Counted from the first letter of the stretch, positions 43,865-46,248 are shown. The stretch is 64,000 nucleotides of DNA from Gammaproteobacteria bacterium (GCA_018815245.1 JAHIXK010000014.1:82508-146507), one strand, 5' to 3'. Made by a program: numbers and translations. Notes: generated from the sequence alone by a model not told the origin.

Positions 43865-43955
43865 GGAGAGATGGATGAGTGGTTTAAGTCGCACGCCTGG
43901 AAAGCGTGTATAGGTTAATAGCCTATCGGGGGTTCGAATCCCCCTCTCTCCGCCA
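43865..43955 (+). tRNA. tRNA-Ser (anticodon GGA)
   Basis: GGAGAGA/TCTCTCC acceptor stem, G discriminator + CCA, CACGC-CTGGAAA-GCGTG anticodon arm, long variable arm, GGGGG-TTCGAAT-CCCCC T arm. Confidence 0.98.
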
Positions 43956-43963
43956 AAAATTAC

Positions 43964-43995
43964 AAAAAGCCCTAAACCAAGTTTAGGGCTTTTTT
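43964..43995. terminator. intrinsic terminator after tRNA-Ser
   Basis: Perfect 14-bp stem AAAAAGCCCTAAAC-CAA-GTTTAGGGCTTTTT. Confidence 0.9.
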
Positions 43996-44003
43996 CATTT
44001 CAA

Positions 44004-44261
44004 GGCGGAAGAGAAGCAAAGCCCCTGCGGGCTTTGCGTGGGGGATTCGAAGCTTTTCGCCTACGAGCGAAAAGCCGGGAGAATTGACACAGCCAGTGAC
44101 GCGCAAGCGGCGCGCAGGTGTGGCATGTGGTGTTTCGATACTCAGAGAATCATGCCGAGCGGCGATGTATGCTGCGATTACCGTGTACAAGGTCTCCAAA
44201 GATGAACCGCCCCGGTTGAGTCGTTTGGGGGCTCCTTTTGGGTACTTACCCAAGTCAATCC
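44004..44261. repeat. tRNA-associated multi-hairpin element beginning with an interrupted inverted copy of the tRNA-Ser 3' end
   Basis: GGCGGA-a-GAGA-[25-nt hairpin]-GGGGGATTCGAA is the reverse complement of 43933-43954; further stems at 44016-37, 44052-75, 44122-56 and 44238-53. Confidence 0.75.
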
Positions 44262-44445
44262 TGAGCACTAGTATTTAAGAGCTGAGCTGAATAAATGAAG
44301 TTTTTAACTCATTTGATAAATTACTTTGCTGTTTTTCAGTGTTTAGTCTTCGGCTAGCCAAATTAAATTGCTCTAACTACTCAGTGAGTTGAAGCTCATG
44401 CGGTGTAGTTCAATACAAGCTACTAAAATGATCAGGGGATGAGCG

Positions 44446-45507
44446 ATGGATTTCAAAGACGGCATTGCTGAATTATCACGACGAATTAGCTCCACAATGG
44501 AGCACGCCAAAACAGAAGAGGCGGTTAAGACTGCGTTCATATTGCCTTTTCTCTCCAAATTGGGTTATGACGTTTTCAATCCAACCGAGGTAATTCCAGA
44601 GCTTACGGCTGATCATGGCGTTAAGAAAGGCGAGAAGGTTGACTACGCTATCAAACTGGACGGCAAAATTGCAATCTTGATTGAATGCAAGCAGCCGGGC
44701 GCACCGCTAGAGACTAAACACGCGGGTCAACTATTTAGATACTTCGCTGTGACCGATGCCAAGTTCGGGGTTTTGACGGACGGCATTCGCTACCTGTTCT
44801 TTAGCGATCTAGAGAAAGAAAATAAGATGGACGAACGGCCATTCTTTGAGTTTAACCTTTCAGATTACAGTGACAATGACGTCGAAGAATTAAAGAAATT
44901 TACCAAGCCTGGATTTGACCTCGAGACCATCTTGAGCACGGCTAGCAACCTTAAATACATGAAGGCTTTGAATCTTGAAGTTCGAAAAGAATTCGCTGGC
45001 ACCCCATCTGAAGAAATCGTTAAAATTTTTACTTTACGGGTGTATGACGGAAGATTCACTGCGCAAGTTAAGGACCAGTTCACCGAACTGCTGAAACGCT
45101 CCTTCGATAATTTTTTGAAGGAAAGCATCAACAGTAAGCTGAAGTCTGCATTTGAATCTGATCCTCCCAAAGGAGATGGCGTATCGGATTTACCCTCTGT
45201 AGATGGTGATTCTGATGGTGATGTTGATACAACTCATGAAGAGGTAGACGCCCACCGAATTATTCAAGCCATCGGTGCGGAGTTGGCTGACGTGGATAGA
45301 ATTGTGATGAGAGACGCGAAATCATACTGTGCAATTATTTTTGATGACAACAATCGTAAGCCAGTCGTACGTCTTCACTTCAACAAAAAGAAACTTGCAA
45401 TCGGGGTTTTTATCGGTAAAGAGGAGCAAAAGTTCGACATTGAGAAATTGTCGGAAATTTATAAGCAGAAAACATTGATACTTCAAAGCATTCAGCAATA
45501 TTTGTAA
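44446..45507 (+). CDS. stand-alone HsdR N-terminal-like PD-(D/E)XK nuclease (353 aa)
   Basis: TEEAVKTAFILPFLSKLGYDV, EKVDYAI, LIECK, GVLTDGIRYLFF; visibly AT-richer codon usage than flanking genes. Confidence 0.8.
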   Translation: MDFKDGIAELSRRISSTMEHAKTEEAVKTAFILPFLSKLGYDVFNPTEVIPELTADHGVKKGEKVDYAIKLDGKIAILIECKQPGAPLETKHAGQLFRYFAVTDAKFGVLTDGIRYLFFSDLEKENKMDERPFFEFNLSDYSDNDVEELKKFTKPGFDLETILSTASNLKYMKALNLEVRKEFAGTPSEEIVKIFTLRVYDGRFTAQVKDQFTELLKRSFDNFLKESINSKLKSAFESDPPKGDGVSDLPSVDGDSDGDVDTTHEEVDAHRIIQAIGAELADVDRIVMRDAKSYCAIIFDDNNRKPVVRLHFNKKKLAIGVFIGKEEQKFDIEKLSEIYKQKTLILQSIQQYL

Positions 45508-45642
45508 ATTGAACCGCCCCTCTTTCCTTATGCACTTTCAGAATCAGAAATACGTTGCGCTTTTAACTTTTGTCTGAACTTCCAACTCTCCCGGTGGCGC
45601 CCTAAAGGGCGTAGATAGCAGCATTCAAATCAGGAGTACCCC

Positions 45643-46248
45643 ATGTCTATCCCCAACGCCACCCCCATCAAAATCCAGGTCTGGACCGATTTCGTGTGTC
45701 CGTTTTGTTTGCTCGGTGAATCGATCATTGAAAAAGCCATTGAAGGTTTGAACGTTGAACTGGAATGGATGCCTTTTGAGCTGCGTCCGTACCCAACCCC
45801 TACTTTAAAACCTGAAGATGAATACCTGCCACGTGTGTGGAAGGCATCTGTGTACCCCATGGCTGAACGCCTTGGCGTGCCGATCAAGCTGCCCACAGTG
45901 TCGCCGCAGCCATACACCCGCAAGGCGTTTTTGGGTTTGCAGTATGCCAAGCAGCAGGGTAAGGGCAATGAATACGCCACGGCAGTGATGAAGGCGTTTT
46001 TTCAGCAGAACCAGAACATTGGTGAAGACGAGGTGTTGAAAGGCATTCTCCAAAACCTGGGTATGAACCCTGCAGGTCTGGATGCGTTTGTAAATTCTGA
46101 ACAAGCCAACGCGCAGCATGATGCGGACCTTCAATATGCAAAACAGGTGGGCATTCAGGCGGTGCCCTCGCTGGCGGTGGGTGCGCAGTTTTTCTCGGGC
46201 GTGCCCAGTGTACAGGCGCTTCGGGAAGCCATTCAACATGCACAGTAA
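45643..46248 (+). CDS. DsbA/FrnE-family thioredoxin-fold oxidoreductase
   Basis: WTDFVCPFC (CXXC), WMPFELRP, cis-Pro IQAVPSL. Confidence 0.85.
   Translation: MSIPNATPIKIQVWTDFVCPFCLLGESIIEKAIEGLNVELEWMPFELRPYPTPTLKPEDEYLPRVWKASVYPMAERLGVPIKLPTVSPQPYTRKAFLGLQYAKQQGKGNEYATAVMKAFFQQNQNIGEDEVLKGILQNLGMNPAGLDAFVNSEQANAQHDADLQYAKQVGIQAVPSLAVGAQFFSGVPSVQALREAIQHAQ

Follow-up and report, generated by a model that had tools for sequence, protein, structure and literature searches.

The 64,000-nt stretch of a Gammaproteobacteria bacterium genome analysed here (GCA_018815245.1, JAHIXK010000014.1:82508-146507; hereafter the window, with positions counted from its first letter) carries, downstream of a tRNA-Ser gene, an open reading frame (ORF) of 353 amino acids (44446..45507, + strand) which the ORF list, Pfam, PHROG and homologue searches identify as a stand-alone HsdR_N-type nuclease (COG2810 / PHROG 4225). 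It is an intact, selected, horizontally mobile and partner-less PD-(D/E)XK nuclease gene in a real hotspot. We infer that the nuclease restricts or excludes foreign DNA: the best reading of the locus, and the one towards which we lean, is a methylase-independent restriction or exclusion nuclease acting against incoming phage or other foreign DNA. One-gene anti-phage defence is credible but unproven.

Domain architecture of the nuclease

The original prediction, which was made from the sequence of the window, described a 353-residue protein with an N-terminal PD-(D/E)XK nuclease, a helical middle, an acidic linker and a separate C-terminal domain, and all of these are present in the protein and in its AlphaFold2 model. 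The nuclease domain spans residues 1-140 (44446..44865, + strand) and matches both HSDR_N (PF04313; E=4.7e-15, 56.4 bits against a cut-off of 25.1, residues ~24-127) and HSDR_N_2 (PF13588; E=7e-10, 39.4 bits against a cut-off of 25). Its catalytic motifs are EKVDYAIK, which contains D66 (codon 44641-44643), and LIECK, which contains E80 (44683-44685) and K82 (44689-44691); these + strand codons are followed by those of Q95-x-x-R98-Y99. A QxxxY helix is a hallmark of HsdR nuclease heads such as that of EcoR124I. Degenerate catalytic residues in homologues had been named as an observation that would speak against a single-gene defence system; D66, E80, K82, Q95, R98 and Y99 are instead invariant in an alignment of 41 homologues. 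The full-length AlphaFold2 model computed from this 41-sequence alignment (pLDDT 80.9) assigns a predicted nuclease fold with an alpha-beta-beta-beta-alpha-beta core to residues 1-137. Foldseek gave only weak matches, to BpuSI, 3ijm and the HsdR subunit of EcoR124I (2w00; E 0.03-0.2), compatible with the heads of restriction enzymes and of HsdR, together with a weak match to EndoMS.

The helical middle domain (residues 141-236; 44866..45153, + strand), which has no Pfam match, is composed in the AlphaFold2 model of helices 143-150, 159-184, 189-199 and 206-236. It is followed by an acidic disordered linker (residues 237-262; 45154..45231, + strand; pLDDT <50 at residues 236-259) with a pI of 4.05 and nine D+E against one K+R, whose length and sequence vary among homologues. 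The C-terminal domain (residues 263-353; 45232..45504, + strand) is predicted by AlphaFold2 to adopt an alpha-beta5-alpha fold, and scores well when residues 264-350 are folded alone (pLDDT 91.4, pTM 0.85). It carries an invariant signature in the homologue alignment, R289-D290-A291-K292-x-Y294-C295-A296 ... N302-N303-R304 ... R309. Structure prediction of this domain, one of the checks proposed at the outset, thus gave a confident alpha/beta fold with no significant relative: Foldseek found nothing significant either in the PDB (best E=0.056) or in BFVD (best E=0.012, DUF5858), the weak fold matches being to TarM, OspA, MRP1/2 and DUF5858, and there was no Pfam match at E<=10 and no match in a profile search of PDB sequences. 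A second, degenerate nuclease domain was ruled out by an hhalign probability of 1.5% against the nuclease domain. We propose that the C-terminal domain could serve as a target-recognition or regulatory module.

In agreement with the original prediction, the protein contains no helicase or other Pfam domain beyond the nuclease; superfamily 2 (SF2) motor/helicase families (ResIII, Helicase_C) gave no match at E<=1.

Gene start, composition and selection

The start codon is backed by the M1-D2 N-terminus kept in homologues and by a Shine-Dalgarno sequence, GGGGA, at 44435-44439. The latter lies at the end of an AT-rich 5' leader (44262..44445, + strand; GC 0.42 in 44200-44599), in which an Rfam scan found no RNA family, its only matches being to the tRNA upstream of the leader and, below threshold, to sX4, overlapping that tRNA. 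The ORF begins 490 bp downstream of tRNA-Ser(GGA). The gene and leader had been described as AT-richer than their flanks, and they are: GC is 0.41-0.47 over 44200-45600 vs 0.52-0.58 on both sides.

Against its three closest relatives the gene shows pN of 0.05-0.09 vs a saturated pS of 0.87-0.96, a pattern from which we judge it to be functional and under strong purifying selection. DNA homology to the closest relatives is confined to the ORF (44446-45500) and ends exactly at the ORF ends.

Size and spread of the family

Over residues 1-352 the protein matches PHROG 4225 ('endonuclease'; E=2.4e-106), with no match in NCBIfam, and by sequence similarity the locus is a further member of the catalogued family COG2810 / PHROG 4225, the family itself not being new. 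COG2810 was grouped with HSDR_N in a census of PD-(D/E)XK proteins (PMC3424549). The function assigned to the family is a prediction only; some close homologues bear the JGI name 'predicted type IV restriction endonuclease'.

A word-indexed search returned 7993 homologues, with 56-91% identity over ~100% of the length among the matches listed, and an exhaustive search yielded 5065 clusters at 50% identity (1072 at E<=1e-30), nearly all of which share a 340-390-aa architecture. At least 573 species genomes carry the family, from Cyanobacteria to methanogenic Archaea and across many phyla, and homologues are also found on plasmids and in phages. Cross-phylum identity is 57-66%, the C-terminal domain included. 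The GC content of the gene is below that of its surroundings in 78 of 80 genomes (median difference -0.114), and in the tree the window protein belongs to a clade supported at SH-aLRT 99, together with two sequences from Cyanobacteria and one each from Sphingobacterium and Woeseia. Such comparisons depict a long-lived gene, strongly constrained and transferred repeatedly, across phyla.

In three of the nine longer relatives that we scanned (P0146, P0154 and P0177) a TerD domain precedes the full three-domain nuclease at the N-terminus; P0192 has an added C-terminal RAMA domain (E=2.7e-14), and a weak SeqA_C match was also seen. RAMA is a predicted m6A-discriminating domain that is found fused to restriction nucleases and SeqA (PMC4738411).

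Insertion downstream of tRNA-Ser

The hotspot is anchored by a tRNA-Ser gene with anticodon GGA (43865..43955, + strand; ARAGORN, and Rfam tRNA at 56 bits). Immediately downstream lies a stretch of conserved backbone made up of a terminator hairpin and a hairpin element (43956..44127, + strand), which is near-identical in each of the five congeners examined, G021 and G007 with their empty sites among them. Since the tRNA terminator and hairpin are common to all congeners up to 44127, where homology ends, and backbone homology resumes only at 45580 (G012) or 45593 (the others), with no match to 44128-45579 in the congener loci, we place the strain-specific insert at ~44128..45579 (+ strand, ~1.45 kb). 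It holds one gene only and starts 172 bp downstream of the tRNA. The islet originally drawn at 44262-45527 is therefore real but wider than first described, and the variable hotspot at tRNA-Ser likewise holds up, although the insert does not abut the tRNA, the conserved 43956-44127 lying between the two.

The right-hand core flank is a DsbA-like gene (45643..46248, + strand; ORF list) with 75-88% DNA identity in 15 of the 24 congeners sampled. With the tRNA and this gene as flanks, the absence of an adjacent methyltransferase or specificity gene, stated in the original prediction, is borne out. The distance separating tRNA-Ser from the DsbA-like gene ranges from 186-196 bp at the empty sites of G021 and G007, through ~800 bp (G010, G008 and G011), 3.3 kb (G012) and 6.3 kb (G002), to 39.6 kb (G020). 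At the very site of the nuclease gene, G010 (L028 335-818), G008 and G011 encode an 87-aa RelE/ParE-like toxin together with a 77-aa antitoxin; the 6.3-kb insert of G002 (L032) is a P4-type integrase island at the same tRNA-Ser; and the 39.6-kb island of G020 (G020:C10:129103-168701) carries a terminal 50-nt repeat of the tRNA 3' end. The hotspot is not dedicated to defence cargo, because the 3.3-kb insert of G012 (L031 2578-2931) contains an AraC-type regulator, two small NTF2/SnoaL-like proteins and small unassigned ORFs.

Neither an integrase nor an att repeat is present in 44128-45579: the sole tRNA-like repeat is an inverted one (43933-43944 / 44040-44051), in which the 3' end of the tRNA recurs, interrupted and in inverted orientation, within the hairpin element of the conserved backbone. 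An integrase and a direct repeat of the tRNA 3' end, the usual marks of a tRNA island, are thus lacking from the insert, and islands that have them occupy this tRNA in G002, G020 and the metagenomic relative L125. A remnant of the congener islands was ruled out as the origin of the insert, its non-coding flanks matching nothing in G002, G012, G020 or L125. As a side observation, the hairpin element after tRNA-Ser is also kept, at 83% identity, in L125, an unrelated contig, and the 43956-44127 element gives a sub-threshold match to Rfam sX4 (39 bits vs a gathering score of 70).

An 11-nt direct repeat, TGAACCGCCCC, at 44203 and 45510 brackets the gene. We rejected it as a cassette or target-duplication signature and treat it as chance, because 9.5% of 74 homologous loci have flanking repeats of >=10 nt, much the same share as among mismatched controls (8.2%). 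Separately, the homologue of a Methylophaga metagenome-assembled genome (L053) lies between perfect 34-nt direct repeats, GAGAAGGTTGGGATGAGGGTGACAGATTTAATAG, the only locus of the 74 with a long flanking repeat; a recent insertion may account for it, or an att-like duplication.

The gene occurs in only one of 41 related genomes, being absent from 24/24 congeners and 16/16 further relatives, and conserved core-genome synteny, which had been put forward as evidence that would overturn a defence role, is not seen. Taken with the locus comparisons, this distribution supports the view that the gene is accessory, was acquired horizontally and occupies a truly variable hotspot.

Genomic context of the homologues

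All-against-all clustering of the +/-4 neighbours at 74 chromosomal loci found no family recurring in more than four loci and revealed no conserved partner gene. Among the 143 immediate neighbours at these loci the commonest Pfam families, Fic, AAA_19 and AAA_30, occur three times each, no methyltransferase family stands out, and there is no HsdM or HsdS; matches of the GajB type are UvrD helicases. The stand-alone character of the gene claimed at the outset therefore extends to its homologues.

Several individual contexts are suggestive, if anecdotal. The closest homologue (91% amino acid identity) is located in an integrase island, next to a TIR-domain gene, and the island's end matches, at 83%, the backbone just downstream of the same tRNA-Ser. 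On marine contigs L041 (2691-4943), L042 and L043 the homologue follows tnpA-/tnpB-like ORFs of the IS66 type, at the usual position of the IS66 transposase; IS66, IS110 and HigB genes surround the marine homologue, a HigB toxin pair being upstream. In E. coli, 190 of 5426 complete genomes (~3.5%) carry a homologue, which stands alone beside HicAB in the GH127-aldB interval. This protein (WP_000061477.1, 359 aa; L136 / L137, sgb/GH127-aldB region) has >=99% identity in 183 of the 190 carriers, is always chromosomal, and is labelled 'type I restriction endonuclease' by PGAP despite having no motor domains.

In five of seven annotated temperate phages the homologue lies between repressor and integrase, on the strand of the repressor (IPP25, Javan316, Juicebox, EG-TP1 and FNU_1P, from Streptococcus, Corynebacterium, Enterococcus and Fusobacterium). 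The arrangement recurs in Lacticaseibacillus phage P7.1, where the genes are unnamed, and in a Porphyromonas phage the homologue adjoins HicAB and an 'acr candidate'. The placement between repressor and integrase holds for the homologues; the window copy sits in a bare islet, not a prophage.

DNA methyltransferases of the host genome

The genome lacks HsdM, its best N6_Mtase match being marginal (23.9 bits), and encodes no HSDR_N protein other than the one described here, which the genome-wide search recovered. No Dam-type or C5 DNA methylases were found in it, a lack that we count as compatible with a modified-DNA target. The only clear N6_N4 DNA-methyltransferase signal of the genome is on another contig, at G000:C2:66639-68306 (L141, L142), in very long open frames of 2234 and 962 aa, which may belong to a large mobile-element or defence protein.

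Discussion

The reading we favour has the following parts. The gene, having presumably arrived by horizontal transfer into a recombination/integration hotspot downstream of tRNA-Ser, is predicted to encode an active, self-contained DNA endonuclease, in which the helical spacer and the flexible acidic linker would tether the nuclease to the conserved C-terminal alpha/beta domain. That domain would select the target, for which the likeliest candidate is some constant property of foreign nucleic acid (modified bases, for example, or DNA of unusual structure), in the manner of type IV-like direct restriction. An invariant nucleic-acid feature, and not a fast-evolving phage protein, is suggested by the lack of a protecting methyltransferase and by the 57-66% identity across phyla; together with the reader-domain fusions, these are the reasons why direct recognition of a DNA feature is favoured over sensing of a phage protein. 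The RAMA, weak SeqA_C and TerD fusions of longer relatives form a suggestive link to modified DNA. A role in defence or exclusion draws independent support from the repressor-integrase placement in phages, the TIR neighbour of the closest homologue and the toxin-antitoxin neighbours. E. coli normally carries Dam and Dcm, in which case its homologue has to put up with methylation at G6mATC and C5mCWGG, and the target, if it is a modification, would be a different one.

Several observations weigh against this interpretation. The C-terminal domain resembles no known modified-base reader in Pfam, PDB or BFVD, and the 353-aa protein itself is without a RAMA, SeqA or TerD domain. Comparison with defence catalogues and a look for homologues in defence islands had been proposed at the outset: PADLOC-DB v2.0.0 returned no family at E<=1, so that no defence model matches, and the chromosomal homologues are mostly lone inserts amid housekeeping genes at unrelated insertion sites and not in defence islands, no defence family occurring more than twice among the 143 neighbours of the 74 loci, a count made without a formal background control. 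The high sequence conservation is atypical of defence genes, the leader (44262-44445) has no consensus sigma-70 promoter on the + strand, and in the literature on COG2810, PF04313/PF13588, phrog_4225 and WP_000061477 we found no experimental characterisation of any family member. A strain-specific Campylobacter jejuni protein with the RAST label 'Prophage Lp2 protein 6', detected by proteomics and RNA-seq, is a putative homologue at best, and we give it no weight as evidence.

The main rival, which we consider unlikely, is an autoinhibited abortive-infection nuclease: the C-terminal domain or the acidic linker would hold the nuclease off until a phage-derived cue, be it a protein, free ends of DNA or an intermediate of replication, sets off indiscriminate, Shedu-like DNA degradation. 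The layout of nuclease, flexible acidic linker and separate domain would suit such a switch, as would the lack of an antitoxin or methylase shielding the host and the presence of toxin-antitoxin and TIR genes nearby, and a place in the lysogeny module fits abortive-infection genes such as rexAB equally well. A sensor of fast-evolving phage proteins is nevertheless hard to square with cross-phylum conservation that extends to the C-terminal domain; the RAMA/SeqA-like fusions point to direct DNA discrimination, and there is no similarity to Shedu or any other PADLOC entry. It is less probable still that the gene serves a mobile element and not the host, be it as a selfish homing-like or addiction nuclease or as a single-gene passenger with a prophage or mobile-element function (competition, processing, recombination). 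Single-gene inserts devoid of mobility genes, homology that stops at the ORF ends, the IS66, plasmid and phage contexts and transfer across phyla are all what this explanation would lead one to expect; yet flanking direct or inverted repeats are not enriched over controls, the insertion sites are unrelated, homing would require homologous flanks, which are not found across phyla, and competition with other elements would in practice amount to a defence phenotype.

We give very little credence to a housekeeping DNA repair or recombination nuclease, or to a decaying, functionless remnant of an eroded island. PD-(D/E)XK proteins do include repair enzymes, the Foldseek match to EndoMS could be read in this way, and no integrase or att site is left in the islet; against this stand the absence of the gene from all 40 of the other genomes compared, its patchy distribution and foreign composition, and an intact frame with invariant catalytic residues under strong purifying selection. 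Least probable of all, and in our view rejected, is an orphan subunit acting in trans with a type I methylase/specificity complex encoded elsewhere. The homology of the N-terminal domain to that of HsdR and the PGAP name are what recommend it, but motor/helicase domains are missing, HsdM and HsdS are not among the neighbours at the 74 loci, and the protein cannot be a type I subunit because the genome is without HsdM and without a second HSDR_N protein.

The protein can be compared with several known systems. With the nuclease head of HsdR (EcoR124I, PDB 2w00; PF04313/PF13588) it shares the PD-(D/E)XK Pfam family and the D...ExK triad followed by a Q-x-x-x-Y helix (Q95 and Y99 here), and there is the weak structural match to 2w00. 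Unlike HsdR it has no SF2 translocase/helicase, and no HsdM/HsdS in locus or genome, having family-specific helical and C-terminal domains instead; 'type I restriction endonuclease' is a misnomer. Its own family, COG2810 / PHROG 4225, shows full-length three-domain homology with no difference. Solitary type IV enzymes (Mrr, the DpnI/HhiV4I wH-fusions and END nucleases with iEndoIII) are likewise single polypeptides with no cognate methylase and a nuclease tethered to a separate domain, the END nuclease architecture being analogous to that of the 353-aa protein, and some relatives carry RAMA or SeqA-like m6A readers. A difference is that no similarity of the C-terminal domain to wH, SRA, EVE, RAMA, iEndoIII or any solved fold could be detected. 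The phage homologues share with the prophage exclusion genes lambda cI-rexAB, P22 sieB and BstA their position and orientation, between repressor and integrase and divergent from the early lytic genes, whereas the proteins and mechanisms are unrelated and the window gene sits in no prophage. Shedu (DUF4263) is also a single-gene PD-(D/E)XK nuclease with an extra regulatory or sensor domain, but differs in sequence (no PADLOC match) and in domain order, and activation by DNA ends is a feature of Shedu.

A broader proposal, which we regard as possible although doubtful, is that COG2810 is a very widespread single-gene immune nuclease missed by the catalogues, and that its C-terminal domain is a new class of nucleic-acid reader, recognising modified bases or a replication/packaging DNA structure and aiming the nuclease at foreign DNA. 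Defence catalogues would miss the family because it travels alone.

Seen within this genome only, the locus is unremarkable, one accessory gene at a hotspot linked to a tRNA; the family is a good defence candidate. Should the family prove to restrict phages, the defence catalogue would gain a very common one-gene system: ~3.5% of complete E. coli genomes have it, it extends over many bacterial phyla and into some Archaea, and temperate phages of Firmicutes, Actinobacteria and Fusobacteria carry it in their lysogeny modules. Such a result would also mean that genes spreading as solitary inserts escape searches built on defence islands, and it would define a function for a conserved domain without a structural relative, possibly useful as a reader of DNA features.

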